The notes under the pieces were generated by a model, which did no database searches, was not told where the DNA came from, and saw nothing but the letters and a program-made list of their open reading frames with translations. The position numbers and the translations under genes were made by a program. A stretch of 64,000 nt of DNA from Escherichia phage SF. Location of the stretch: sequence record MH359124; one strand, given 5' to 3'. Below, piece after piece: positions 273 through 52,771 of this stretch; the first letter of the stretch is position 1, and each line of letters starts with the position of its first letter.

Positions 273-1295
273 ATGGCTGAATGGATAGATAATGAATTTG
301 CTTATCGTGCGTTTTCTCACCTACCTCGTTTTAGACAAATCAATAATTCAAGCACATTTAAATTAACATTTCGTTGTCCAGTTTGTGGCGACTCCCAGAC
401 CGATGCAATGAAAGCTCGCGGATGGTATTATGGCGGTACTCCTGGTAATGTACATTGTTATAATTGTCAATACCACAATACAATTTCCGGATACTTAAAA
501 GAGTATGATGAAGAGCTTTATCGCGAATACCTAATGGAAGTTCGTAAAGAAAAAGCTAGAATGGAACCAAAGATTGAAAAGGTTCCTGAACATAAACCAG
601 AACCGGAGAAAAAGACTATAAATTCTTTGCCGTCTTGTTCTCGTCTGGACAAGCTGCCTGAAGAGCATCCTATTGTGAAATATGTTAAGTCTCGATGCAT
701 TCCTAAAGAATCATGGAACAGATTATGGTTCACATTAGAATGGCCTAAATTGGTCAACAAGATTCAACCTGGTACGTATAAGAAAGAGATTCCCGAACCA
801 CGTTTAGTGATTCCTATTTTTAATAAAGACGGGAAGGCTGAGTCATTCCAAGGACGTGCACTTCGTAAAGATGCTCCTCAGAAATATATCACTATTAAAG
901 CGTTCGAGTCTGCAACAAAAATTTATGGTGTTGAACGTGTTAAGGAAGGAGACGTCTGGGTAATGGAAGGCCCTATTGATAGTTTATTCATACCCAATGC
1001 AATCGCTATTACAGGCGGCTCAATAGATTTAGATGTGGTACCATTTAAAGAACGTCGGGTATGGGTAATGGATAATGAACCTAGGCATCCAGATACTATA
1101 GCTCGCATGAAGCGATTAGTTGATGCAGGCGAACGTGTTATGTTCTGGGACCGAGCTCCATGGAGATCAAAGGATGTGAACGATATGGTAATGAAAGAAA
1201 ATGCAACACCACAAGAAATTTTAGAATATATGAAACAGAATATTTCAAGTGGGTTGCATGCTAAAATGAGATTATCTCGTTATTCTAAGATTTAA
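273..1295 (+). CDS. 61: DNA primase gp61
   Basis: 340 aa; N-terminal Cys4 zinc ribbon (CPVCGD...CYNC) and overall match to recalled T4 gp61; GGAGA SD before ATG. Confidence 0.9.
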   Translation: MAEWIDNEFAYRAFSHLPRFRQINNSSTFKLTFRCPVCGDSQTDAMKARGWYYGGTPGNVHCYNCQYHNTISGYLKEYDEELYREYLMEVRKEKARMEPKIEKVPEHKPEPEKKTINSLPSCSRLDKLPEEHPIVKYVKSRCIPKESWNRLWFTLEWPKLVNKIQPGTYKKEIPEPRLVIPIFNKDGKAESFQGRALRKDAPQKYITIKAFESATKIYGVERVKEGDVWVMEGPIDSLFIPNAIAITGGSIDLDVVPFKERRVWVMDNEPRHPDTIARMKRLVDAGERVMFWDRAPWRSKDVNDMVMKENATPQEILEYMKQNISSGLHAKMRLSRYSKI

Positions 1296-1489
1296 ACAAG
1301 CCCTATAATAGCAAATGCCAAATCAACTACGGTATCCAATGGAACAGAAGGAACCATAACACCATGGGCAACTAACAATGGCGCAATCCCGAAGTTCCAT
1401 GAAATAATGCCACCTACAACTATTGCAGCGATAGCAGTTTTCTTTTTATTGCCTTTAATAGCGTTGATTAACGATGGAAGTTTAAACAT
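1292..1489 (-). CDS. small hydrophobic membrane protein, unknown function
   Basis: 65 aa, two hydrophobic segments; strong SD AAGGAG 5 nt upstream of ATG on minus strand; sits in the 61-56 intergenic gap. Confidence 0.5.
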   Translation of the reverse strand: MFKLPSLINAIKGNKKKTAIAAIVVGGIISWNFGIAPLLVAHGVMVPSVPLDTVVDLAFAIIGLV

Positions 1490-1578
1490 AATATCTCCTT
1501 AGTTACCTATTATTTATTACGCTTTATAAAATTAATGTTAGAATTAACTTCTCTTATACTGAATTGAAAGGAAAAATA

Positions 1579-2100
1579 ATGGCGCACTTTAACGAATGTT
1601 CACAACTTATTTCTGGTGTTGATAAAGCAGAAGAAGCTTATTTTAATGCTCTGATTCATGAAGATAAAGACCCATTGCAGGTAATGCTTGATATGCAGAA
1701 ATCTTTACAGGTTCGTCTGGCAAATGACAAGCCTGAACATAACAAACATCCTGATGAATTGGCCACTGCTGGCGATGTTGTTGATTGGCTGCGTAATCAG
1801 AAAGATTATATCGATGATGAATTCCGTGAACTGCTGACTTCACTTGGTGGTATGAGCAATGGTGAAAAAGCCGCTAGCTCTGTATGGAAGCCGTGGAAAG
1901 CACAACATGCTGAATATCGAAATCGACGTATCGATGAACTGTCTCCTGAAGACCAGCTTGAAATTAAATTCGAGATGATTGATATCCTCCACTTTGTTCT
2001 GAATATGTTCCAAGGCCTAGGTCTTTCCGCTGAAGAAATCTTTAAACTTTACTACTTGAAAAACCAACACAACTTTGAACGCCAGGATAATGGTTACTGA
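1579..2100 (+). CDS. 56: dCTPase/dUTPase gp56
   Basis: Start moved from track TTG (1564) to ATG 1579 (MAHFNEC...); strong match to recalled T4 gp56 (PLQVMLDMQ, ETAGDVV, EDQLEIKFE, EEIFKLYYLKN). Confidence 0.9.
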   Translation: MAHFNECSQLISGVDKAEEAYFNALIHEDKDPLQVMLDMQKSLQVRLANDKPEHNKHPDELATAGDVVDWLRNQKDYIDDEFRELLTSLGGMSNGEKAASSVWKPWKAQHAEYRNRRIDELSPEDQLEIKFEMIDILHFVLNMFQGLGLSAEEIFKLYYLKNQHNFERQDNGY

Positions 2101-2107
2101 TTAGGGT

Positions 2108-2115
2108 TATAAATA
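2108..2115 (+). promoter_or_regulatory. T4-type late promoter TATAAATA upstream of soc
   Basis: Exact TATAAATA about 30 bp upstream of soc ATG. Confidence 0.6.
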
Positions 2116-2146
2116 CACCTGTAATTAAACAACAAAGGAGTTAATT

Positions 2147-2383
2147 ATGGGTGGTTATGTAAACATCAAAACCTTTACACGTCCGGCTGGTGAAGGCAAA
2201 GAAGTTAAAGGTATGGAAGTTTCTGTACCGTTTGAGATTTATTCAAACGAACATCGGATTGCAGATTCTCATTACCAAATCTTTCCATCAGAAAAGGCAG
2301 CATATTCTACTGTAGTTTCTGATGCAGCTGATTGGAAAACTAAGAATGCTGCAATGTTTACCCCTACACCAGTAAGCGGTTAA
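2147..2383 (+). CDS. soc: small outer capsid protein Soc
   Basis: 78 aa; GYVNIKTF...HYQ.FPSEKAAYSTV matches recalled T4 Soc; late promoter upstream. Confidence 0.85.
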   Translation: MGGYVNIKTFTRPAGEGKEVKGMEVSVPFEIYSNEHRIADSHYQIFPSEKAAYSTVVSDAADWKTKNAAMFTPTPVSG

Positions 2384-2391
2384 ATAATTTA

Positions 2392-2418
2392 AGGAATCCT
2401 TCGGGATTCCTTTTTTTT
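2392..2418 (+). terminator. rho-independent terminator (UUCG loop) after soc
   Basis: aggaatcc-ttcg-ggattcct hairpin followed by T8. Confidence 0.6.
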
Positions 2419-2427
2419 GTTTCTAGA

Positions 2428-2457
2428 GTTTACAACCACTAAAAACTGTGTTAAGAT
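2428..2457 (+). promoter_or_regulatory. T4 early-type promoter (GTTTAC -35, degenerate -10)
   Basis: GTTTAC then about 17-18 bp to TAAGAT; precedes ORF 2486. Confidence 0.4.
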
Positions 2458-2485
2458 ATTCTTACTTACTCAAGAGGAGAACAAT

Positions 2486-2713
2486 ATGTTAAATCGTTGG
2501 ATTAAACCTAATAACACATTAGGTGCTTTGATTGCTCAAGAAGTTTCGTTGAAATACGGTCTTGGATATTATGATGATGTAGTCGTACACTCGTTCATGA
2601 TGGATGGCGAAGACGTCAAATTTAATGCCGAAATCCGTTGGGACGATGGTGGTGTTCGTTTTGTTCGAGGAACAATTAATGCTTACGATGCTGAAGAAGT
2701 TGTTTGCTGTTAA
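2486..2713 (+). CDS. hypothetical protein
   Basis: ATG 2486 with GAGGAG SD (track ORF 2417 trimmed); 75 aa. Confidence 0.5.
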   Translation: MLNRWIKPNNTLGALIAQEVSLKYGLGYYDDVVVHSFMMDGEDVKFNAEIRWDDGGVRFVRGTINAYDAEEVVCC

Positions 2714-2726
2714 ACCAGGCGAAGGT

Positions 2727-2927
2727 ATGATGCCTATTCCTGATACACACGAAAAAAGTTGGGAATATATCGGTGACGGAATGATGGAAGAAGTTGTTCG
2801 TCCAAAAACAAAACAGGTTAATGCTTCAAGCTCTTCAAGTTATAATCATTCATACGTATCATCTTGGCCTGGTGATTCCGGGTCAAGTTATTCTGATTGT
2901 GGTTCAAGCTCAGGGAGCTGTGAATGA
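2727..2927 (+). CDS. hypothetical protein with Ser-rich low-complexity C-terminus
   Basis: ATG 2727 after GAAGG SD, immediately after the previous stop; 66 aa. Confidence 0.35.
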   Translation: MMPIPDTHEKSWEYIGDGMMEEVVRPKTKQVNASSSSSYNHSYVSSWPGDSGSSYSDCGSSSGSCE

Positions 2928-3103
2928 ACAGAATAGTAAAATGGTTTAAAAGCTGGAATGATGGAGTCGGACCAGAAGATTGGTTAGATGTTTTTGAAGA
3001 GAAAATGGTCAAAGAACTCCAGAAACATGAAGAGAAGCTCGTCGAAGATGAAGGCGAACGTATTGTAAAACTTTATATGGGTGAACCATCGAGGAAATTA
3101 TAA
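2924..3103 (+). CDS. hypothetical protein
   Basis: ATGA start/stop overlap with upstream ORF and TAATG overlap with downstream ORF, typical T4 gene packing; 59 aa. Confidence 0.35.
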   Translation: MNRIVKWFKSWNDGVGPEDWLDVFEEKMVKELQKHEEKLVEDEGERIVKLYMGEPSRKL

Positions 3104-3567
3104 TGGATGCTATGCTATTTAAAATGTATTTGCTTGAAGCCAAGTCGTTTAAACATATACCAGTAGAAGATAAGACTCCACTAGAAATAGCTATTCTCAT
3201 TAACAAATGTCTAAATAATCCGCAATATATCGTAGAAGAATTCTGCAAATTGCAGATTCCTAAAGGTTACAAAATTCGTGTAGAGCGAGTTGGAGCTATT
3301 ACTCGTTCTAAAAATTCTCCGTTTAGTCTTGAAGAAGGCATAAAGGACTTAGGTTATGAATCTACGGAAAATGCCGTTTATGTGAATCCAGAAAAGCGTT
3401 TAGATTTGTTTGAAAAGCGAGACCATAAGTATTTTGCCAAAAAATACTTTATTACGTCATTAGCAGATTTAATCCATTTGCAACGAGCTATTTGGAAATT
3501 TTTTAAGACAAAAGGTGTAGCGCTAGAAACATTCTCCGAACCTGCTAGTTTTTATCTCGGTGAATAA
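3103..3567 (+). CDS. hypothetical protein (soc-modB interval)
   Basis: 154 aa ORF, translationally coupled to neighbours. Confidence 0.5.
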   Translation: MDAMLFKMYLLEAKSFKHIPVEDKTPLEIAILINKCLNNPQYIVEEFCKLQIPKGYKIRVERVGAITRSKNSPFSLEEGIKDLGYESTENAVYVNPEKRLDLFEKRDHKYFAKKYFITSLADLIHLQRAIWKFFKTKGVALETFSEPASFYLGE

Positions 3568-3964: not shown

Positions 3965-4546
3965 ATGACATGTCAATCTGAACTTCAAGAACGCGAATAC
4001 CTAACAAATCTGATTGATAGCAAATTCACCCGCCAAGAACAAAACATTCTCTGGGCTTGCACAGATTCTAAGGAAGACCCGGATTTCCACTATGAATTAG
4101 ACCATCTTGTTCGTAAGCATATGACTTCTACAGTACCAGTAGAACTCTACCGCGGTGTAACTCCAGAAGAAGTAGAACGTCTTTCCCTTCTTTCTGTTGG
4201 ATGTCATTGGTCTCCTGGACGAGTAACATCATTCACAACTGATTTCAGTACAGCTCGTCAATTCTCCGGGAGTTGGGAGTATCAGACGTACACTATTCTT
4301 AGTCTCAGGAATGCTCCATTCATTTTTGATTACTACCAAAACATGGTTAACATTGTACTTGCCGGAAAGAACCCTAAGCATGTTATGGAAGAAACACGTG
4401 TTGACGTCCTAGATATGATTGAATCTGAACAAGAGTACATGGTCTCAGGTATCTCTAGATTTGAGATTGTGGAAATTGAAGACTTAGAATATGACCCTTT
4501 ATCTCAGTTATACAAAATCATTCATTTAAAAATGTTGAATTTTTAG
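3965..4546 (+). CDS. modB: ADP-ribosyltransferase, ModB-like (R-S-E class)
   Basis: 193 aa; YRG (Arg), TSFTT (STS), ESEQEYM (catalytic Glu) motifs; paralog of next gene; position as in T4 modB-modA-srd-dda. Confidence 0.7.
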   Translation: MTCQSELQEREYLTNLIDSKFTRQEQNILWACTDSKEDPDFHYELDHLVRKHMTSTVPVELYRGVTPEEVERLSLLSVGCHWSPGRVTSFTTDFSTARQFSGSWEYQTYTILSLRNAPFIFDYYQNMVNIVLAGKNPKHVMEETRVDVLDMIESEQEYMVSGISRFEIVEIEDLEYDPLSQLYKIIHLKMLNF

Positions 4547-11883: not shown

Positions 11884-13701
11884 ATGATTAAAAATGAAAT
11901 TAAGGTATTGTCAGACGTAGAACATATTAAGAAACGTAGTGGCATGTATATTGGTTCTTCGGCCAAAGAAGCCCATGAGCGTTTTTTGTTTGGTAAATAT
12001 CAACAAGTTGAATATGTTCCTGGTCTGGTTAAATTAATCGATGAGATTATTGACAACTCGGTTGATGAAGCTATTCGTACATCATTTAAGTTTGCAAATA
12101 AAATTGATGTGCAAATTAAAAATAATCAAGTTTCGGTGGAAGATAACGGACGTGGTATTCCTCAAGGTTTAGTTACTGACCAAACAGGTGAACAAATTCC
12201 TGGGCCTGTAGCAGCCTGGACTATTCCAAAGGCTGGCGGTAACTTTGGTGATGACTCTGAACGTAAGACCGGTGGTATGAACGGCGTCGGGAGTAGTTTA
12301 ACTAATATCTTCTCTACGTTGTTTACAGGCATCACGTCAGATGGCGAAAATGAAATCACTGTTAACTGTTCAAACGGAATGGAAAACAAATCATGGTCTT
12401 CTAAGAAATCTAAAGGTAAAGGCACTAAAGTAATCTTCACTCCTGATTTCTCTTCATTTGAAGAGCATAATTTATCTCAAATTTATTTAGATATTACTTT
12501 AGACCGACTTCAAACATTGGCAGTCGTTTATCCTGATATCAAGTTCACATTTAATGGTAAAAAGGTTGATGGTAATTTTAAACGATTTGCTAAACAATTT
12601 GGCGAAGATAACATCATTCAAGAAAATGATAAAGTCTCTATAGCATTCACAACATCACCAGATGGCTTCCGTCATTTAACTTATGTGAATAACATCCATA
12701 CTAAAAATGGCGGTCATCACGTTGAATGTGTAATGGATGATATCTGCGAACATCTTTTGCCTGGTATTAAAAAGAAATATAAGGGTATTGAAGTCACTAA
12801 AGCTCGTGTTAAAGAATGTCTCACAATGTTGATGTTTATTAGAGACATGAGCAACATGCGTTTTGATTCTCAGACTAAAGAACGTTTAACGTCAACGTAT
12901 GGCGATATTCGTAATCATATCCAATTAGATACTAAGAAAATTGCTCAGGCACTTCTTAAAAACGAAGCCTTGATTATGCCTATTGTTGAAGCAGCATTAG
13001 CTCGTAAATTGGCAGCAGAAAAAGCTGCAGAAACTAAAGCAGCTAAAAAGGCAACTAAAGCTAAGGTTCATAAGCATATTAAAGCTAACCAATGTGGTAA
13101 AGATGCAGATACGACATTGTTTTTAACAGAAGGTGATTCTGCAATTGGTTATCTCATTGATGTTCGTGACCGTGAACTACACGGCGGATTTCCATTACGT
13201 GGTAAGGTGATGAATAGCTGGGGTATGTCATATGCTGATATGATGAAGAACAAAGAGCTCTTTGATATCTGTGCTATCACAGGTCTTATTCTTGGTGAAA
13301 AGGCAGAGAATACGAACTATCGTAATATTGCAATTATGACCGATGCCGATCATGACGGTCTTGGAAGTATTTATCCGGCTTTGCTTGCTTTCTTTAGTAA
13401 TTGGCCTGAATTGTTTGAACAAGGACGTATTCGCTTTGTTAAAACGCCTGTAATTATTGCACAAATTGGCAAAACTCAAAAATGGTTTTATACTGTAACT
13501 GAGTATGAAGAAGCTAAAGATACACTGCCTAAGCATAGTATTCGATACATCAAAGGATTGGGCTCCCTTGAAAAGTCAGAATATCGTGAAATGATTCAGA
13601 ACCCTGTGTACGACGTAGTTAAACTTCCTGAAAATTGGAAAGAACTCTTTGAAATGTTGTTGGGTGATGATTCAGAACTTCGTAAAGAATGGATGTCCTA
13701 A
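11884..13701 (+). CDS. 39: DNA topoisomerase II large subunit, undivided gp39+gp60
   Basis: 605 aa; N-terminal GHKL ATPase region matches recalled T4 gp39 and C-terminal part (IAIMTDADHDGLGSIYP...LRKEWMS) matches T4 gp60 in one continuous frame. Confidence 0.9.
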   Translation: MIKNEIKVLSDVEHIKKRSGMYIGSSAKEAHERFLFGKYQQVEYVPGLVKLIDEIIDNSVDEAIRTSFKFANKIDVQIKNNQVSVEDNGRGIPQGLVTDQTGEQIPGPVAAWTIPKAGGNFGDDSERKTGGMNGVGSSLTNIFSTLFTGITSDGENEITVNCSNGMENKSWSSKKSKGKGTKVIFTPDFSSFEEHNLSQIYLDITLDRLQTLAVVYPDIKFTFNGKKVDGNFKRFAKQFGEDNIIQENDKVSIAFTTSPDGFRHLTYVNNIHTKNGGHHVECVMDDICEHLLPGIKKKYKGIEVTKARVKECLTMLMFIRDMSNMRFDSQTKERLTSTYGDIRNHIQLDTKKIAQALLKNEALIMPIVEAALARKLAAEKAAETKAAKKATKAKVHKHIKANQCGKDADTTLFLTEGDSAIGYLIDVRDRELHGGFPLRGKVMNSWGMSYADMMKNKELFDICAITGLILGEKAENTNYRNIAIMTDADHDGLGSIYPALLAFFSNWPELFEQGRIRFVKTPVIIAQIGKTQKWFYTVTEYEEAKDTLPKHSIRYIKGLGSLEKSEYREMIQNPVYDVVKLPENWKELFEMLLGDDSELRKEWMS

Positions 13702-13725
13702 GCTCCTTCGGGAGCTTCATTTTAA
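13701..13725 (+). terminator. putative terminator hairpin after gene 39
   Basis: agctcc-ttcg-ggagct followed by a T-rich tract. Confidence 0.45.
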
Positions 13726-13743
13726 TTTTAATAAGGCTTAATT

Positions 13744-14844
13744 ATGAAAGTTATGTTTATCCCATCTCGTGCAGTCCCATTTAATCCTGACCGTGTACAA
13801 GGTGGTCTTGAAGCAGTACATTTAAATGTGCTGAAATATTTAGTTTCTATTGGTGCCGATATTGATTATATCGGTTTTGATAATGACACGTTTGGTGACT
13901 GGAAAGTTACACACCACCCTGTTGGACATCTGACTAAATTCAGTCTAGGTATGAGTTATACTATGGCTCGTAAGATTGTTGAACTAGCCGGCATCCATGA
14001 ATACGATTTTGTTGTTACTATGGAACCGACTAAACTAACCGTTCAGGCAATTAAAGACGCAGGTCTCTCTAAAGTTCATAAGAATTTTATGGCAACACCA
14101 TTTGAACCTGTATCTCGTGGCATTGTTCAAATTTGGGACCAGACTATTCAAATTCATAAGAATGGTGGTAAGAGTTATGCTCCTACTAAAGCCTTCCGTG
14201 AATTTGAACGCAAATATTGTTATATGACTTCAGGTCTGACTGACAAAATTGATTATGATTATTGGCGAGCAAATCCGTTGTTTGAAGCCGAAGATTATCC
14301 GGTTATTTGTTTGAATGAGAAACCTGAAGTTCTTCCTGCGACTGATCTGATTATTAGTGCACAACGTTATGACACTAAAATGCGTCGTACTGATGTTGCT
14401 CTTGAAGCGATTAAAGCACTAGGCGAAAATGGTGTAGGATACTGTCCAAGCAAATGGGCACCACCAGCTAAATATCCTGTTATTATTGATGCTCCACACA
14501 GTGAAATCATGGAACGTCTTAAAACAGCTAAAGCACTTATTAATACGTGTCCTGACACAGGTACGGTAGAGAATAGTTCTATTGAAGCCATCTCTAAAGG
14601 TGTCCCTGTAATCCAGTTAGTTTTTAAGGATTATCCTCATGCGACATTCGAATACGACCCAGATACTGTGCGTGTAGAAATTGATTCCTCTACTCCTAAG
14701 AAAGAAGTAGTTGCGCTTTACACAAAAGCTGTATTAGAATTCACTGACACATACGAAGCTCGAGTTAAACGTGCTGAAGCAGTATGGAAGAAGTATAACC
14801 GAGATGCAGTTGTTGCGATGTGGGATAAAATCTTCACAGCGTAA
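13744..14844 (+). CDS. putative GT-B fold glycosyltransferase (GT4-like); function inferred from motifs only
   Basis: 366 aa; N-terminal MKVMFI...GGLE and C-terminal TGTVENSSIEAISKGVPVI resemble GT4 donor-binding motifs; not similar to recalled T4 alpha-gt or beta-gt. Confidence 0.5.
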   Translation: MKVMFIPSRAVPFNPDRVQGGLEAVHLNVLKYLVSIGADIDYIGFDNDTFGDWKVTHHPVGHLTKFSLGMSYTMARKIVELAGIHEYDFVVTMEPTKLTVQAIKDAGLSKVHKNFMATPFEPVSRGIVQIWDQTIQIHKNGGKSYAPTKAFREFERKYCYMTSGLTDKIDYDYWRANPLFEAEDYPVICLNEKPEVLPATDLIISAQRYDTKMRRTDVALEAIKALGENGVGYCPSKWAPPAKYPVIIDAPHSEIMERLKTAKALINTCPDTGTVENSSIEAISKGVPVIQLVFKDYPHATFEYDPDTVRVEIDSSTPKKEVVALYTKAVLEFTDTYEARVKRAEAVWKKYNRDAVVAMWDKIFTA

Positions 14845-14860
14845 ATCCTGAATAGCCTGA

Positions 14861-14911
14861 GGCACTATTACACATAAGATGATAGATTATATGGTCTTTA
14901 GTAATAGTGCC
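14861..14911 (+). promoter_or_regulatory. inverted-repeat cassette (11-bp arms) with -10-like element upstream of ORF 14937
   Basis: GGCACTATTAC (14861-14871) and GTAATAGTGCC (14901-14911) flank TAGATTATAT. Confidence 0.35.
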
Positions 14912-14936
14912 CTAGGAATCTACTGAAGAGAATATT

Positions 14937-15137
14937 ATGAGAACATATAACGTGGACTTGGAACTTTTTGATAAAGCTGTGCTCCGGGAATTCCGGCTTA
15001 TCCAAAGGTTTTTTGATATCGAGTCAGCTGAAGCCTTTAAAGAACGCTTTAAGGAAATTCGATATAAAATACAAACCGATACAGCTACTAAAGAAGAACT
15101 TCTTGAAGTAGCAGAAATTTTTAAACGTAACTTGTGA
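14937..15137 (+). CDS. hypothetical protein
   Basis: 66 aa, predicted helical, charged. Confidence 0.45.
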   Translation: MRTYNVDLELFDKAVLREFRLIQRFFDIESAEAFKERFKEIRYKIQTDTATKEELLEVAEIFKRNL

Positions 15138-15149
15138 TGAGAGAAAAAT

Positions 15150-17363
15150 ATGATTATTGAAACGGCTAAAGAAACGATTATCGGTTCAGGCGGTAAGAGC
15201 ACAGCATTTACTATTCAAGGCAATAGCAAAGTTTATAAGATTTTGTCTAATGACCTTTATACAAACAAAGAATTGGCTTGTGTACGTGAATTAATCACAA
15301 ACTGTATTGATGGACAAATTCTTAATGGTTGCACTGATAAGTTTATTGTTCAGGCTCCAGGTCGTTTAGACCCACGTTTTGTAGTTCGAGACTTTGGTCC
15401 TGGTATGAGTGATTTCACCATTCGAGGTAATGACGAAGAGCCAGGAATCTATAACTCATATTTTGCTTCAACTAAAACATCGAGTAACGATTTCATTGGT
15501 GGATTCGGACTCGGTTCTAAAGCTCCACTAGCATATACTGATACGTTTAACATTACTTCTTATCATAATGGTGAAGTTCGTGGTTACGTAATCTACCAAG
15601 ATGACACGGGTCCACAAATTAAGCCAACATTTGTAGATAAGATGGGTCCTGATGACAGGACCGGCGTTGAAGTAGTTGTGCCTGTTAACCCAGAAGATTT
15701 TGAAAAGTTCGCATCCGAAATTGCTTATGTTATGCGTCCTCTCGGCGATATTGCAGAAGTTCGTGGTGTTAAAGATATCAAATACTTCCCAGAATTTGAT
15801 GATGTTTATTTAGCCAAGGAAGCTCCATGGGGTGAACGTGGTAATATCATGGCTGTTTATGGTGGTATTGTATATCCAATCGGAAGTGTTATTAAAGAAC
15901 AAACATGGATGATGACGCGATGCACTACAGCTTATATTAAATTCCCTATGGGTGAACTAGATGTAGCCCCGTCTCGTGAAGCATTGTCATTTGATAAACG
16001 TACAGTAGCAAATATCCATAAACGCGTTGCAGAAATCGATGCAAAATTATTTGCTGAAGATTCTAAGAAATGGATTGATTGTGAATATCCACGTCATGTA
16101 TTCCGTGAAATCGATTCTCTTGGTTACTCTGCTCGTAAATACATGGAAAAAGCTGGTTCTAATATTGAATCACTGAAATATTCTAAAGAACAGCTAACTT
16201 ATTCTGAGTTGTACAAACGTTTTAAAATGGGACCTGAATGGTGCAACCTTGGCGTTGTATATGATATCGTTTCAGACCCACGGCTTCGTCGTATTCGTGA
16301 AAGCGGAAGCTCGTCTTCAACTATTTCAATTAATAGCCTGCTAGGTATTAGTCGTAAGCATATTGATATTGTTATTGACGATGTGAAAGGCCGCGTACCA
16401 ATGATGCGTGCTCTGAACGATGCTTTGACTTCCACCGATGCATCAACACTCGTTGATAAGGTTCCTTCCGGATGGGGTAGTAGCGTATTATTCATTAACC
16501 CAGAAGACGAAGTTGCAATGAAACTTCTGGAACGATTAAAGGTTATTTTCGCTGGTGATAGCCTTAAATTTTATAAGACCTCCGAAATTCTTGCATTGGT
16601 TAAACCGTGGATTGAAGTTAAAGAACGTTCATCACAGCCTCGTCCTAAATCACCGAGTGCTCATCGGTTCTTTAAGAATGAAAACGATGTTTGGGTATCA
16701 GAAGATCTCTTTATTCCGGCCGGTAAAGCTGATGAGATTCAAGGTTATGTTGTAATTCGTAATCGTTCTAACGCTGAATGTCTTGACGCAGATAAAGGTT
16801 GGTTGAACTATGATTCTAGTTTCTTGACTCGTATTGCCGATTTGTCAGGTATTAAAGAGTTCACTGTAGTTCGCCCACAGATTGCTAAGAAAGTTCGTAA
16901 ACTTGGTGAAGTAGAATGCTTGTTCGAAAAATCAATTAATGACTATATTATGCTAATCGATAAAGTAGATTATGATGAGTATGTATCACCAAGTCGTAGA
17001 GCACAGCCTTATTTGAATCATATTACTCGTAATGAAGAGCTTAACTTCCTCAGTAAGTATTTTAGCTCTAAGAACAAAGAAATCAGTAAAGATTTTGCAA
17101 AACTTTCAACAGTAAATAATCGTTGGGGATGGAATCGATTCGCAGGTGCTGATAACAGAGACCTGAACAGGAAGTTAGAATTGTGTGCTAAAATTTTCGA
17201 TAAGCTTAAAGATAATGCTTACGATAATGATGATAAAATGGTTATTGAATTTGAAACCAATTATCATATTGTGTCAGAATACATGGGACGACGTGGTACT
17301 CTTTCTAAAGAACAGGTCGCTCAAATCGTTAAATTCATGAAGGCCGTGGAAGCGGCCAAATAA
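15150..17363 (+). CDS. rIIA: rIIA protein
   Basis: 737 aa; N-terminal region (VRELITN, GRLDPRFV.RDFGPGMSDF, NDFIGGFGLGSK, IYGGIVYPI) closely matches recalled T4 rIIA. Confidence 0.9.
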   Translation: MIIETAKETIIGSGGKSTAFTIQGNSKVYKILSNDLYTNKELACVRELITNCIDGQILNGCTDKFIVQAPGRLDPRFVVRDFGPGMSDFTIRGNDEEPGIYNSYFASTKTSSNDFIGGFGLGSKAPLAYTDTFNITSYHNGEVRGYVIYQDDTGPQIKPTFVDKMGPDDRTGVEVVVPVNPEDFEKFASEIAYVMRPLGDIAEVRGVKDIKYFPEFDDVYLAKEAPWGERGNIMAVYGGIVYPIGSVIKEQTWMMTRCTTAYIKFPMGELDVAPSREALSFDKRTVANIHKRVAEIDAKLFAEDSKKWIDCEYPRHVFREIDSLGYSARKYMEKAGSNIESLKYSKEQLTYSELYKRFKMGPEWCNLGVVYDIVSDPRLRRIRESGSSSSTISINSLLGISRKHIDIVIDDVKGRVPMMRALNDALTSTDASTLVDKVPSGWGSSVLFINPEDEVAMKLLERLKVIFAGDSLKFYKTSEILALVKPWIEVKERSSQPRPKSPSAHRFFKNENDVWVSEDLFIPAGKADEIQGYVVIRNRSNAECLDADKGWLNYDSSFLTRIADLSGIKEFTVVRPQIAKKVRKLGEVECLFEKSINDYIMLIDKVDYDEYVSPSRRAQPYLNHITRNEELNFLSKYFSSKNKEISKDFAKLSTVNNRWGWNRFAGADNRDLNRKLELCAKIFDKLKDNAYDNDDKMVIEFETNYHIVSEYMGRRGTLSKEQVAQIVKFMKAVEAAK

Positions 17364-18653: not shown

Positions 18654-19130
18654 ATGAAGGTGAAGATTGCTGACACTGCTCGGTATTCCCTGAGCCAAAA
18701 TCCTGGCCAAAACAAAGAAGATGTAGTTCGACGTTGTAAGGTTGCGGTCTTTGCAGAGTATGTAGTAGCAAATTGGCTAGACGGATATGTTAATAAAGGT
18801 ATTGAAGACGTAGAAGACCCATACACGTATGCATGGGACGTGTTAGCCCATCCCAAGTATTGCGGAATTCGTGTAGAAGTCAAGACACACCAGATAGATT
18901 CTAAATGGATTTCGGTTACCACAGGATACAGTGGTGATTATCCGGGTGGTAATGGAATCAATATAGGGCCCTTCTTGAACCATCGAGTCGCAGACTGCAT
19001 TATTATATTAGATGTCAAAGAAACCTCACCTGACGTCTTCTCTTATTCTATAAAGTTCGTGGGAGACCATGAAGACCTAAAGAAAATCGTCCGCAAGAGC
19101 AACTACAACGGGTGGTATCTTCATCTTTAA
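18654..19130 (+). CDS. hypothetical protein (possible denB-region product)
   Basis: Track ORF 18510 trimmed to the first ATG after the upstream stop; 158 aa; weak SD. Confidence 0.4.
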   Translation: MKVKIADTARYSLSQNPGQNKEDVVRRCKVAVFAEYVVANWLDGYVNKGIEDVEDPYTYAWDVLAHPKYCGIRVEVKTHQIDSKWISVTTGYSGDYPGGNGINIGPFLNHRVADCIIILDVKETSPDVFSYSIKFVGDHEDLKKIVRKSNYNGWYLHL

Positions 19131-23252: not shown

Positions 23253-23582
23253 ATGAATAAGCTGAATATTATTAACGAACTTCGTAAATGTGCAGAACCT
23301 ACTCAGGAAGGATGGGATATTTGGTACCACGGGGCTTATTTAGGGACAATTGTAAAGATTAAAGCAGGCCAATATATGATTATTCGTGAAAATAATGACG
23401 CACCATTTGGCCTTCGTAAAAACTACATGGCAGCGATCAGTTCATTTGTTGATGCAGCTTACGAAATCTATAAAGAAGATTATAAAGAATATCAGCAGTC
23501 ACAACCGGTTATTCGTTCGATTGGTGTAAATAAACAAGCACAAAAATCTATTTGGCAACGTATTAAGGAATGGTTTAAATGA
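23253..23582 (+). CDS. hypothetical protein
   Basis: 109 aa. Confidence 0.5.
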
Positions 23583-24040
23583 AATCATTTAAAGAACGTT
23601 TAGAGCTATTAGATTTGGCCTTGTCTCGTGAGACTCCTGAAAGTCTAGCAGAAAAATTCCAGTCCTACGGTTATAATTATTCTGCTGATGATATAATGAA
23701 TGAAGTTCCTGAAATCTGTTGGCAAACGTGCTATTGGAATAATGACCAAAAAGTTCAACGTGTTATAGTATGTGCAGCTAATAGGTTTAAATTGAAGAGT
23801 GGTGGAACTCTGGTTATTCCTGGAGTTCGTCATTACTCTAAAGATATGGCTGAAGTACTTGATATAGTTGGTCCTCAATTAGTCTCGCAACAAGTTTGTG
23901 GCGACGACCAAGGCTTTATCGACCAATACTCTAACTACTGGACTCGTGAAGAAGCAATGATTATTGCAACGTATGCTGGACAGGTACGTATTGAACGTGG
24001 CGGAAGTGAGAAAGAACTTTATTCAGAGGACCTGTATTAA
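23579..24040 (+). CDS. hypothetical protein
   Basis: 153 aa; ATGA overlap with upstream gene. Confidence 0.5.
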
Positions 24041-26036: not shown

Positions 26037-26066
26037 AGACCCTCCTTTTAAGGATATTTATTCAAA

Positions 26067-30186
<4,120 letters not shown>

Positions 30187-37192: not shown

Positions 37193-37508
37193 TATTAAAC
37201 CGGTTGATGAGGCCGGTTTATCTGAACAAGAATTAGCGGTAAAACACGATAAAGATGATATCGCTAAATTGCTTGACCGACAAGAAAACGGATTCATTAT
37301 CGAATCCATGGTTGAACAATTTGGTATGTCTTATTTAGAAGCAACAACTGCTTTCTTGGAAGAAAATTCTATTCCAGAAACACAATTTGCTAAATTTATT
37401 CCTACAGGAATTGTTGAAAAAATTACAAGCGAAGCAATTGACGAAAACATGCTTCGCCCATCAGTTGCTCGTGGTGAAAAAACTAATACGTTAGATTTCT
37501 TATTATGA
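37170..37508 (+). CDS. 33: late transcription co-activator gp33
   Basis: 112 aa; MTQFSL...LLDRQENGFIIE...NTLDFLL matches recalled T4 gp33. Confidence 0.85.
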   Translation: MTQFSLSDIKPVDEAGLSEQELAVKHDKDDIAKLLDRQENGFIIESMVEQFGMSYLEATTAFLEENSIPETQFAKFIPTGIVEKITSEAIDENMLRPSVARGEKTNTLDFLL

Positions 37509-39744: not shown

Positions 39745-40927
<1,183 letters not shown>

Positions 40928-40942
40928 TTATATAGGTGTTAA

Positions 40943-41803
40943 ATGAAACAATATCAAGATTTGATTAAAGATATCTTAGAAAATGGCTATGAAACAGACG
41001 ACCGTACAGGTACCGGCACTATTGCTCTATTCGGAACTAAATTGCGATGGGACCTTACTAAAGGATTTCCTGCAGTAACAACCAAGAAGCTTGCATGGAA
41101 AGCTTGTATTGCCGAGCTATTATGGTTCATGTCTGGTTCTACCAATGTTAATGATTTGCGTATTCGTACTCATGGTAGTCTTATTCAAGGTAAAACTATT
41201 TGGGACGACAACTATGAAAATCAGGCAAAAGACCTTGGATATCATAGCGGCGAACTTGGTCCTATTTATGGTAAGCAATGGCGTGATTTTGGTGGTGTAG
41301 ACCAATTGGTCAAAACTATTGACCGTATTAAAGCTCTTCCTAATGATCGTCGTCAAATAGTTTCTGCATGGAACCCGGCCGAAATTGACCAAATGGCTCT
41401 TCCTCCTTGTCATATGTTCTATCAATTTAACGTGCGTAATGGGCATCTTGATTTACAATGGTATCAACGCAGTGTAGATGTTTTCTTGGGTCTGCCATTC
41501 AACATTGCCTCGTACGCTGCCTTGACACATATTGTAGCGAAGATGTGTAACCTTATCCCAGGTGATTTAGTGTTCTCAGGCGGCAACACGCATATCTACA
41601 GCAATCATGTAGAACAATGCAAAGAAGTTCTTCGTCGTGAACCTAAAGAGTTGTGTTCTCTTGAAATTAATTGGCCTAGTAATTTTGAGAATTGGCCTAC
41701 AAAAATCCAAATGGACTGGGTTACTGGAACGATGACACATTCTGATTTCGTTCTTAAAAATTACGAATCTCATCCAACTATCAAAGCTAAAATGGCGGTA
41801 TAA
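40943..41803 (+). CDS. td: thymidylate synthase, uninterrupted
   Basis: 286 aa continuous ORF; TDDRTGTGT, catalytic PPCH, FNIASYA motifs. Confidence 0.95.
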   Translation: MKQYQDLIKDILENGYETDDRTGTGTIALFGTKLRWDLTKGFPAVTTKKLAWKACIAELLWFMSGSTNVNDLRIRTHGSLIQGKTIWDDNYENQAKDLGYHSGELGPIYGKQWRDFGGVDQLVKTIDRIKALPNDRRQIVSAWNPAEIDQMALPPCHMFYQFNVRNGHLDLQWYQRSVDVFLGLPFNIASYAALTHIVAKMCNLIPGDLVFSGGNTHIYSNHVEQCKEVLRREPKELCSLEINWPSNFENWPTKIQMDWVTGTMTHSDFVLKNYESHPTIKAKMAV

Positions 41804-45659: not shown

Positions 45660-46070
45660 ATGAAAGATATTGCCGCCGAATATTCCTTTATTAAATATAC
45701 AGAATTGGAGCTATTAGAAGATGCAACAATTAAAACAGTTGATGTCCCTAATAAGAAAAATGTCATATACGCTATTGCTATAGATGACGAGCTTGTGTAT
45801 ATTGGTAAAACCAAGAATTTAAAGAAACGCATTAACTATTATCGAACAGCCATAAATCGAAAAGACCAGACTTCAGATTCAAGAAAATCACTTATGATTT
45901 TGGATGCCTTAATGCAAGGCAAAAAGGTTGAATTCTGGGCCCGCCAATGTTTTGACCTTTCAGTCACCAACGAACTTGGTTCAATGACTATCGCAACAAT
46001 GGACCTTGAAGAACCGCTTTTTATCAAAAAGTTCAACCCGCCTTGGAATATCCAACATAAGAAAAAGTAG
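45660..46070 (+). CDS. denA: endonuclease II (GIY-YIG family)
   Basis: 136 aa; YSFIKYTELEL, VIYAIAIDDELVYIGKTKNLKKRINYYRTAINRKD, C-terminal PLFIKKFNPPWNIQHKKK, closely matching recalled T4 DenA. Confidence 0.9.
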   Translation: MKDIAAEYSFIKYTELELLEDATIKTVDVPNKKNVIYAIAIDDELVYIGKTKNLKKRINYYRTAINRKDQTSDSRKSLMILDALMQGKKVEFWARQCFDLSVTNELGSMTIATMDLEEPLFIKKFNPPWNIQHKKK

Positions 46071-47312: not shown

Positions 47313-47813
47313 ATGAATATGCAATTGATTACTAACGATATGGTTGTGGCAGCATTTGGTGATTCTACAGATGGAATCCGGGTCTTTAAGAAAGGCCGTG
47401 CAGTTGGTTATCTTACTGACCTCCGTGTTACACTGGCCAAAAATCTTAAAAAGAAAGTAAAACAAAAAGAGTATTCCACCAGATACGCTGAAGAGAAACG
47501 CGAAGCGATGCCAGAAGCAGTTAATGCTATGGTAGAATTTCTTCAAAACAATTTGACTAAATATGACGCTAATGTGTTCATTAATATTAGTCAACCAAAC
47601 GTACATATCGCAGGTATAAAATTCTACATTATTTGCGACCCTCTTACCGACAAATTCAACCGCCTCGGAATTTCAAGTCCGTATCATACAGCAGAAGAGT
47701 TGTGTGTATTGTTTGAATCGTACAAAATCCAGTGTGATGGTCCGAAAACCGTTCTTATCAATGGATTATCCCGAGATGAAATCATTGAGATTATTAAAAC
47801 ATGCTTAAAGTAA
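47313..47813 (+). CDS. alc: Alc, host transcription terminator on dC-DNA
   Basis: Start moved to ATG 47313 after GAGGAG SD; 166 aa; MNMQLITNDMVVAAFGDS.DGIRVFKKG..., VLINGLSRDEIIEIIK match recalled T4 Alc. Confidence 0.8.
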   Translation: MNMQLITNDMVVAAFGDSTDGIRVFKKGRAVGYLTDLRVTLAKNLKKKVKQKEYSTRYAEEKREAMPEAVNAMVEFLQNNLTKYDANVFINISQPNVHIAGIKFYIICDPLTDKFNRLGISSPYHTAEELCVLFESYKIQCDGPKTVLINGLSRDEIIEIIKTCLK

Positions 47814-51197: not shown

Positions 51198-52190
51198 ATG
51201 TTACCTGTCGTCAGAAAACTTATTTCTCCAAAAGAACTGGCTGAGATTATTCCTTTGTCGGAAGCTTACGCATCACAAGTGGCTTCTCATCGCGAACAAG
51301 TTAATTCGATTATGAACGGTGAAGACCCACGCAAACTTATTGTTGTAGGTCCTTGTTCAATTCATGACCCTATTGCTGCTGTTGAATACGGCAAACGTCT
51401 GGCTGAACTTCAAACTCGTCTTCCTAATGTTCTGTTAGTGATGCGCGTTTATTTTGAAAAGCCTCGAACTACCGTAGGTTGGAAAGGTCTTGTAAATGAT
51501 CCATATCTTGACGGAAGTTTTGATATGAACCACGGTCTTATAGTTGCACGAACATTGTGTCGTAAACTTCTACGTATGGGACTTCCATTAGCAACTGAAG
51601 TATTAGACCCATTCACGATTAAGTATCTTTCTGGTATTTTCTCATGGGTTGCTATTGGCGCCCGTACGACTGAAAGTCAGACACATCGTGAAATTGCTTC
51701 AGGTCTACCGATGTGCGTAGGCTTCAAGAACGCAACCAATGGTTCTATTAAAGTAGCTACAGACGCGATGTATAGTGCCGCCTGGCCTCATCGGTATATG
51801 GGTATGGACGTCGATGGTACTGTAGGCATTGTTGAAGCTGAAGGTAATCAGAATACGCATATCGTATTGCGTGGCGGGACTAACGGCCCGAACTATCATT
51901 CTTCTGATATTCAAGAAGCTTCTAACAAAGCAAGTGCATTAGGTCTGAATCATTATGTAATGGTTGACTGTAGCCATGCAAACGCTGATGGGTATTATAG
52001 CAATCAAATTGGTATTGGTAAAAATTTAGCAGCTAATGATTTGGTCAAAGGAATTATGATAGAATCATTCCTACATGAAGGAAATCAAAAAATTTCTGAT
52101 AATATGTCCTATGGCGTTTCCATTACCGATGCGTGCATCAGTTGGGAACAAACTAAAGAGCTGTTAACTTATATTAATAAGGTTCAATAA
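51198..52190 (+). CDS. 3-deoxy-D-arabino-heptulosonate-7-phosphate (DAHP) synthase, class I (AroG/AroF-like)
   Basis: 330 aa; VVGPCSIHDP, VMRVYFEKPRTTVGWKGL, AIGARTTESQTHRE, DCSHAN, IMIESFLHEGNQ, SITDACISWE match the E. coli AroG catalytic/metal-binding regions; N-terminus shorter than AroG. Confidence 0.85.
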   Translation: MLPVVRKLISPKELAEIIPLSEAYASQVASHREQVNSIMNGEDPRKLIVVGPCSIHDPIAAVEYGKRLAELQTRLPNVLLVMRVYFEKPRTTVGWKGLVNDPYLDGSFDMNHGLIVARTLCRKLLRMGLPLATEVLDPFTIKYLSGIFSWVAIGARTTESQTHREIASGLPMCVGFKNATNGSIKVATDAMYSAAWPHRYMGMDVDGTVGIVEAEGNQNTHIVLRGGTNGPNYHSSDIQEASNKASALGLNHYVMVDCSHANADGYYSNQIGIGKNLAANDLVKGIMIESFLHEGNQKISDNMSYGVSITDACISWEQTKELLTYINKVQ

Positions 52191-52771
52191 TGAAAGCTAG
52201 CACATATCTTCAAATTGCTTATTTGATTTCTCAAGAATCAAAATGTTGTTCATGGAAAGTTGGTGCCGTCATTGAAAAAGATGGACGCATTATCTCTACT
52301 GGATATAATGGTTCACCGGCCGGTGGCGTTAACTGTTGTGAACATGCATCTGAAAATGGTTGGTTGAAGAATAAACCAAGCCCGGTCATCGTTGCTGGCC
52401 ATAAAGAAGGCACTACAGCATTTGGACGGGTAGATAATTTTGTTTTAGCTAAAGAACATCGGGCCGCTCATAGTGCATGGTCTGCTAATAATGAAATCCA
52501 TGCAGAATTGAATGCAATTTTGTTTGCAGCTCGTAAAGGTAATTCTATTGAAGGTGCTACGTTATATACGACGCTTTCTCCGTGTCCTGATTGCACTAAA
52601 GCTATTACGCAGTCAGGTATTAAAAAGGTTGTATACGCAGAATTATATGATCGATCTCCTGAAAATTGGGCAGACATTCTAAAACAAGCCGGTATTGAAG
52701 TAATTCAGTACTCTCGTAATAATCTTCGTTCTCTGAATTGGGAACAAATCCGAAACTTTTGTGGTGAATAA
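52190..52771 (+). CDS. cd: dCMP deaminase
   Basis: 193 aa; zinc-binding H.E and PCxxC motifs (CEHASENG...SPCPDCTKAI). Confidence 0.92.
   Translation: MKASTYLQIAYLISQESKCCSWKVGAVIEKDGRIISTGYNGSPAGGVNCCEHASENGWLKNKPSPVIVAGHKEGTTAFGRVDNFVLAKEHRAAHSAWSANNEIHAELNAILFAARKGNSIEGATLYTTLSPCPDCTKAITQSGIKKVVYAELYDRSPENWADILKQAGIEVIQYSRNNLRSLNWEQIRNFCGE

Follow-up and report, generated by a model that had tools for sequence, protein, structure and literature searches.

A DNA hypermodification recognised only recently, arabinosylated 5-hydroxycytosine protects T4-like phages against restriction enzymes, the Brig1 glycosylase and some CRISPR systems; how long its sugar chain is alters which defences see the phage DNA. 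In Mosigvirus, the arabinose is ether-linked to 5-hydroxycytosine, which a thymidylate-synthase homologue produces in place of gene 42 (PMC13326640, PMC13390438), and the papers of 2025-2026 describe mono- and di-arabinosylated 5-hydroxycytosine in these phages instead of glucosyl-hydroxymethylcytosine. For RB69, arabinose was found on the DNA and ORF003c was proposed as the arabinosyltransferase from HMM and HHpred matches to GT-B enzymes (Thomas et al., 2018, PMC6024577). The RB69 base has since been characterised by LC-MS and NMR as beta-D-Araf-(1,3)-alpha-D-Araf ether-linked to 5-hydroxycytosine, not hydroxymethylcytosine (Lee et al., 2026, PMC13326640). In the same report, the thymidylate-synthase homologue gp48 makes 5-hydroxy-dCMP, gp46:47 is proposed as the first transferase and gp3 (ORF003c) as ‘beta-arabinosyltransferase 2’, the role of gp3 being proposed, not demonstrated (PMC13326640).

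The number of sugars differs among phages carrying this modification. Doubly arabinosylated hydroxycytosine has been reported for Bas46 and Bas47 and the singly arabinosylated form for Serratia phage LC53; Thanatos DNA also carries a single arabinose (PMC13326640), and DLP3 possesses tri-arabinosyl DNA. In vitro, RB69 DNA gains one more arabinose when treated with UDP-Araf and purified DLP3 gp76 and gp77, the two proteins being inactive individually and active only together (PMC13326640). Deletion of an arabinosyltransferase termed ‘Aat’ reportedly renders Bas46 susceptible to a plasmid-borne defence; the citation of this deletion does not state which of the two transferases is meant.

The stretch of Escherichia phage SF DNA analysed here (sequence record MH359124, 64,000 nucleotides, hereafter the window) is Mosigvirus DNA: its 1.6-kb locus of interest is 99.1% identical to Escherichia phage PHB12 and 95-99% identical to ~140 other records of Mosigvirus, the RB69 group of T-even phages. 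The ORF at 13744..14844 (+) was confirmed with an ATG start and a length of 366 aa. Its product shares 363 of 366 residues (99.2%) with RB69 ORF003c/gp3 (NP_861693), which has equal length and likewise sits between gene 39 and rIIA.1, the substitutions T56N, V231A and T327I being conservative. A search of all PDB chain sequences returned a single match, 9iqz/9ir0 (E 5e-251, 363/366 identical, full length), and PHROG 8302 also matches the protein over its full length (E 1e-222). Under the names given by Foldseek, 9IQZ is the ‘phage HY126 glycosyltransferase’ (apo) and 9IR0 the same ‘with UDP’, both released on 2025-07-16. The SF gene is already known: it bears a name, its place in a pathway has been set out, and the crystal structure of a 99%-identical protein has been solved. 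The novelty that a sequence-only reading of the window had considered, that of a ‘new’ DNA-sugar transferase, therefore falls away, since the RB69 enzyme was already proposed in 2018 and the structure became public in July 2025. Many GenBank records mislabel the family as ‘hypothetical’, ‘DNA alpha-glucosyltransferase’ (the RefSeq label in HX01, with similar labels in several Acinetobacter phages), ‘ATP-binding protein’ or ‘hmC-arabinosyltransferase’ (‘putative hmC-arabinosyltransferase’ in the Bas46 record).

With a probability of roughly 85%, the product of the SF ORF is a GT-B enzyme dependent on UDP-arabinofuranose that serves as the second DNA arabinosyltransferase in the arabinosyl-hydroxycytosine pathway of Mosigvirus. 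A DNA-sugar transferase for an alternative, anti-restriction glycosylation had likewise been suggested by the sequence-only reading and is the most likely role (PMC6024577, PMC13326640, PMC13390438). The hydroxymethylcytosine DNA on which that suggestion was built has to be replaced by arabinose on 5-hydroxycytosine, the modification found in Mosigvirus (PMC13326640, PMC13390438).

The SF protein is a GT-B, GT4-like glycosyltransferase, as had been proposed from its motifs, and this is borne out by the predicted fold, by hhalign and by the identity to 9IQZ/9IR0. Judged by sequence HMMs alone, the protein would be mistaken for an orphan: Pfam gave no match even at E<=10, including its GT4 models Glyco_transf_4 and Glycos_transf_1, NCBIfam gave none, and a family profile run against all PDB sequences retrieved only 9IQZ/9IR0, with T4 a-gt and b-gt not found. 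[quoted passage not shown] When 1.84 billion representative proteins were searched exhaustively with the profile, only 25 matched at E<=1e-3 and eight at E<=1e-30. The weak full-length matches carry Pfam Glyco_transf_4 and Glycos_transf_1, and hhalign of the family against proteins with these two domains gave a probability of 99.9% (E 1e-31, 359 columns); the link to GT4 is thus provided only by profile-profile comparison and fold. A first AF2 model, built on a 6-sequence alignment, was set aside owing to its pLDDT of 58.7, even though Foldseek still matched it to 9iqz. A second AlphaFold model, for which distant members found by profile search brought the alignment to 10 sequences, reached a pLDDT of 90.6 and a pTM of 0.86 and superposes on the HY126 structure with a TM of 0.96. 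Instead of a non-GT fold, it displays the GT-B arrangement of two Rossmann-like alpha/beta domains with an interdomain cleft, and its closest structural neighbours are PimA, BshA, WaaG and sucrose-phosphate synthase. Binding of the UDP moiety of the donor is demonstrated through the 99%-identical 9IR0 structure, which was solved with UDP.

The two motifs singled out in the sequence-only reading, GGLE (residues 20-23) and TGTVENSSIEAISKGVPVI (residues 272-290), are both present and constitute the most conserved parts of the family. Across 10 members, which are 34-44% identical to the SF protein, the invariant positions comprise G20, G21, L22, T272-E276, E281-S284, G286, P288 and V289. The conserved E281-A-I-S-x-G-x-P-V in the C-terminal domain aligns with the GT4 nucleotide-binding motif. 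The canonical GT4 (E/D)x7E signature is altered: an invariant T272 lies opposite its first acidic residue and is followed by a one-residue insertion (G273), the second Glu is kept as E281, and the changed residues form part of a family-specific invariant motif, TGTVEN.

The genomic setting also distinguishes SF from T4. In T4, the order at this locus is 39 - mobA - 60.1 - 60 - rIIA.1 - rIIA, and the 54-nt spacer between gene 60 and rIIA.1 harbours an early-promoter-like TTTACT/TATAAT. In SF, an unsplit gene 39 is followed by the transferase gene, bracketed by two hairpins, and then by rIIA.1. Gene 39 (11884..13701, +) encodes the DNA topoisomerase II large subunit of 605 aa, equivalent to T4 gp39 plus gp60, with T4 gp39 residues 1-473 aligning at 79% identity, and forms the upstream border. 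The downstream border is rIIA.1 (14937..15137, +), which is 71% identical to T4 rIIA.1 and matches Pfam T4_RIIA1 (E 4e-30); rIIA (15150..17363) and rIIB follow. Homology to T4 ends at the topoisomerase stop codon and restarts at rIIA.1. Compared with T4, the transferase gene is inserted between the topoisomerase gene and rIIA.1, in agreement with the inserted module envisaged earlier, and the arrangement is fixed throughout Mosigvirus. Comparison of base composition (GC of 0.393 for the ORF and 0.38 for the window) gave no sign of recent acquisition.

The two hairpins differ in how far they rise above chance. The upstream one (13700..13717, +) overlaps the gene 39 stop codon and consists of a 7-bp stem with a UUCG loop (AAGCTCC-TTCG-GGAGCTT), followed by the T-rich tail CATTTTAATT. 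The terminator-like hairpin noted earlier at this site does exist and is 100% conserved in RB69; its stability is, however, not statistically exceptional (-10.5 kcal/mol, z -1.7, with 14/200 shuffles equally stable), and the single terminator-like site found in the 2-kb region, against 1.3 expected, is at chance level. It resembles a terminator or a hairpin that stabilises mRNA. The downstream inverted repeat, also reported earlier, is real and strong. This long, imperfect hairpin (14856..14916, +) lies in the 92-nt spacer from the transferase gene to rIIA.1 and is formed by 16-nt arms (14856-14871 and 14901-14916, 88% complementary) and an inner stem. Its fold of -28.6 kcal/mol (z -4.76, 0/200 shuffles as stable) is well above chance, and no T-run was found 3' of the stem. 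It is 95-100% conserved across 153 Mosigvirus records, a similarity among all 153 copies that leaves no room for a covariation signal. An Rfam search of 13600-15200 matched neither hairpin. A sigma-70 scan of the plus strand from the upstream hairpin to the start codon found no promoter, and a MotA-type middle promoter considered at AGCTTCA (13713-13719) was dropped, as no properly spaced -10 element could be recognised by eye.

The distribution of the family bears on which arabinose of the chain the enzyme would attach. The 2018 proposal amounts to a first, base-proximal arabinosyltransferase, placing the sugar directly on the modified cytosine, and it is favoured by the fact that ORF003c was singled out by its GT-B HMM and HHpred matches and was then the sole recognised glycosyltransferase of RB69 (PMC6024577). 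However, a split-ORF sequencing error in RB69 gp46:47 had hidden the other candidate, the first transferase (GT1), at that time. A tblastn search with Bas46_0141 as the query located GT1 in 347 phage records, covering Mosigvirus and phages of Klebsiella, Enterobacter, Edwardsiella, Yersinia, Pectobacterium, Serratia, Proteus, Pseudomonas and Acinetobacter; it is present in all 347 arabinosylation-cluster records found, whereas the second-transferase family occurs in only 210 phage records. Mosigvirus records hold one copy each of this family (>=95% identity, i.e., at least that value), the listed Acinetobacter T4-like phages (for example, DLP2) hold two copies of ~42% identity, those of DLP3 having been confirmed directly, and one Tegunavirus record also has the family. 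None of the 210 records is from Serratia, the host of LC53. Copies of the family therefore number 0, 1 and 2 where 1, 2 and 3 arabinoses are reported, for LC53, for Bas46/RB69/NP and for DLP3, respectively, and this independent correlation of copy number with chain length is an addition of the present analysis. Furthermore, the phages with a single arabinose (LC53 and, as per PMC13326640, Thanatos) are devoid of a family member, yet carry GT1 next to the 5-hydroxy-dCMP synthase. A base-proximal role for the SF enzyme is hence very unlikely, and a second-step transferase remains the preferred reading.

The gene can be regarded as a relocatable accessory of the arabinosylation pathway, the family being found at four different genomic positions. 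Besides the 39/rIIA.1 junction of Mosigvirus, the DLP2 and DLP3 homologues are located directly after a nucleotide kinase inside the arabinosylation cluster, one metagenomic contig places a 41%-identical member between the 5-hydroxy-dCMP synthase and GT1, and another has a member near T4-type ligase and dsbA genes. DLP3 gp77 and gp76 are 43% and 40% identical to the SF protein, respectively, over the full length and 58% identical to each other, and this closer mutual relationship shows the duplication to be specific to the Acinetobacter-phage lineage. Within the phage collection, the family was detected only in T4-like phages, all 210 records belong to phage groups also found in the GT1 search, and wherever the record or contig was long enough, the phage with a family member also carried the DNA-arabinosylation cluster.

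For SF, the 5-hydroxy-dCMP synthase, first-transferase and UDP-arabinose genes were not found inside the 64-kb window. The near-identical genome of Bas46 has the full cluster ~20 kb from the transferase gene, a position that corresponds to ~6 kb outside the window, and GT1 is also present in the closest relatives, PHB12 and HX01; from such relatives, ~98-99% identical, we infer the presence of the arabinosylation cluster in the SF genome. Of the other genes in the cytosine-replacement pathway, only one was located inside the window, that for dCTPase, the gp56 homologue (1579..2097, +; tblastn, 100% identity to PHB12 dCTP pyrophosphatase), which is listed as a pathway member under RB69p028 (PMC13326640). 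By removing dCTP, this enzyme restricts the cytosine entering phage DNA to the modified form. Four further genes in the window, denB (18654-19127), arn (23579-24037), denA (45660-46067) and alc (47313-47810), are typical of phages with fully replaced cytosine.

In the proposed mechanism, dCMP would be replaced by 5-hydroxy-dCMP through the thymidylate-synthase homologue encoded outside the window, and the 5-hydroxy nucleotide would then be built into the phage DNA. The first transferase (RB69 gp46:47/Bas46_0141) would attach alpha-D-arabinofuranose to the 5-oxygen, after which the SF enzyme, with UDP-arabinofuranose bound in its interdomain cleft, may extend the first sugar on replicated DNA with another, beta-1,3-linked arabinofuranose, giving 5-ara-ara-hydroxycytosine. 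The longer sugar chain would be expected to provide broader protection against host nucleases and other DNA-targeting defences.

The SF protein would thus perform the second step and presumably act alone, although action of a single Mosigvirus enzyme is an assumption, because DLP3 gp76 and gp77 worked only together. The behaviour of these paralogues, each inactive without the other, is what gives some weight to a non-autonomous protein, which would need to associate with the first transferase or a further phage protein in order to function, or would mainly serve as a DNA-binding or positioning subunit; the multi-chain nature of the HY126 PDB entries (4 chains over 2 entries, for example chain H) is in line with such an arrangement. 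Against this, Mosigvirus possesses only one family member, its C-terminal UDP-binding motif and N-terminal GG loop are invariant, and the HY126 protein was crystallised with UDP. Single copy, invariant motifs and UDP co-crystal together suggest a catalytically competent transferase, and dependence on a partner is considered improbable.

Still less credible is a non-DNA acceptor such as host lipopolysaccharide or some other surface component, or a protein of the phage or its host. It would be in keeping with the structural neighbours (PimA, BshA, WaaG and sucrose-phosphate synthase), which act on lipids, small molecules or polysaccharides, and with one metagenome homologue named ‘glycosyltransferase involved in cell wall biosynthesis’. 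Nevertheless, the family is tiny (the 25 matches among 1.84 billion representative proteins), confined to T4-like phages of groups that also appear in the GT1 search and embedded in the cluster in two lineages, and its paralogues act on DNA in vitro. The modifier of the host surface offered as an alternative by the sequence-only reading accordingly found no support, the family occurring only in T4-like phages that have the DNA-arabinosylation cluster wherever this could be checked. Transfer of a sugar other than arabinose, such as glucose, is suggested by the HX01 and several Acinetobacter annotations, and the fold alone does not set the donor sugar, but it is scarcely tenable given that RB69 and NP DNA contain only mono- and di-arabinosylated cytosines by LC-MS/NMR, that similarity to T4 a-gt is not detectable and that these annotations are automated transfers.

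Assuming a second DNA arabinosyltransferase, the stereochemistry of the reaction merits attention. The two arabinoses on RB69 DNA are opposite anomers: the base-linked sugar is alpha and the one attached to it beta (PMC13326640). Since both sugars presumably originate from one UDP-Araf donor, one of the GT4-like phage transferases would invert and the other would retain. The missing first acidic residue of (E/D)x7E and the invariant TGTVEN would fit a changed mechanism, making the SF enzyme a candidate for an inverting transferase on the scaffold of retaining GT4 relatives; this is put forward tentatively and is doubtful at present, and which of the two enzymes inverts would follow from the donor's anomeric configuration.

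Compared with known systems, the SF protein stands closest to RB69 gp3 and the HY126 glycosyltransferase, the sole difference being three conservative substitutions with respect to each. DLP3 gp77 and gp76 (beta-arabinosyltransferases 2/3) belong to the same protein family, but differ in being two paralogues that are needed together, in residing inside the cluster and not at the 39/rIIA junction, and in that the assayed step was addition of the third arabinose. In T2/T6, a beta-alpha-glucosyltransferase adds a second glucose to the first, making gentiobiosyl-hmC. The analogy to this second-step phage enzyme, which also extends a sugar on modified cytosine, is functional only: it uses glucose on 5-hydroxymethylcytosine, and the PDB and Pfam searches revealed no sequence relationship (gentiobiosyl-hmC itself is mentioned in PMC11078745 and PMC13390438). 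T4 alpha-glucosyltransferase (PDB 1Y6F/1XV5) and T4 b-gt likewise display no detectable sequence homology to the SF protein. The bacterial GT4-type GT-B enzymes (sucrose-phosphate synthase 6KIH, BshA, PimA and MshA) are 10-14% identical to it, and the SF protein departs from them in its proposed DNA acceptor, in the loss of the first acidic residue of (E/D)x7E and in escaping the Pfam GT4 models.

The public labels for the transferase gene (window 13744-14844, encoding the proposed second DNA arabinosyltransferase) disagree with one another, and are mostly wrong or outdated. Most records describe its product simply as a 'hypothetical protein', while 'DNA alpha-glucosyltransferase' is the label used in the HX01 RefSeq record as well as in Acinetobacter phages. 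'GDP-mannose-dependent alpha-(1-2)-phosphatidylinositol mannosyltransferase' and 'ATP-binding protein' are further labels in circulation, and in the Mosigvirus phages Bas46 and Bas47 the gene is annotated as 'putative hmC-arabinosyltransferase'.

A third arrangement of the arabinosylation pathway is found on a metagenomic, T4-like Logan contig (SRR26937416, positions 373-3019), where the genes for 5-hydroxy-dCMP synthase, a transferase homologue (41% identity to the window protein), the first arabinosyltransferase (48% to that of Bas46) and a nucleotide kinase follow in that order. The search of phage records additionally yielded a single Tegunavirus record with a transferase homologue (<60% identity), and no homologue in records named 'Yersinia phage'. 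If the Tegunavirus homologue is real, more than one arabinose per cytosine would be predicted in that phage.

The spacer between the transferase gene and its downstream neighbour, rIIA.1, harbours an imperfect hairpin of 61 nt (window 14856-14916), far more stable than its shuffled controls (-28.6 kcal/mol, z -4.76). The hairpin is retained at 95-100% in 153 Mosigvirus records, these copies being too alike to allow covariation analysis. No T-run follows the hairpin and an Rfam search with it returned no match; a role in processing or stabilising the mRNA is conceivable. In the record of Shigella phage JK45 (NC_054940.1), this junction shows a perfect tandem duplication of 503 bp (2207-3212) whose unit spans transferase residue 237 to the fifth codon of rIIA.1. 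This yields an additional 136-aa ORF, in which the first five codons of rIIA.1 are fused to the transferase C-terminal domain. The duplication could be genuine, or else an assembly artefact.

Elsewhere in the window, a plus-strand gene at 51198-52187 encodes a genuine 3-deoxy-7-phosphoheptulonate (DAHP) synthase of 330 aa. The protein matches the Pfam model DAHP_synth_1 at E 2e-74 and scores 426 bits with the NCBIfam aroFGH equivalog, for which the cut-off is 173. Directly downstream lies a dCMP deaminase gene (52190-52768). DAHP synthase is the entry enzyme of the shikimate pathway, and represents an unusual auxiliary metabolic gene for a T-even phage. A chorismate-mutase-domain protein is included in the arabinosylation cluster of Serratia phage LC53.

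Comparison with PHB12, the closest relative, by megablast left two segments of the window without a match. The first (4009-4511, roughly 500 bp) falls inside a 193-aa plus-strand ORF (3965-4546), which has no Pfam match and is located close to where the ModA/ModB-like ADP-ribosyltransferases are encoded. The second (26062-27673) belongs to the distal tail-fibre/adhesin region and is divergent in sequence. Conversely, PHB12 carries a Seg-like homing endonuclease gene between genes 33 and 59 (PHB12 40595-41278) that is absent from the window, where the alignment of the two phages skips it cleanly at ~37504-37508.
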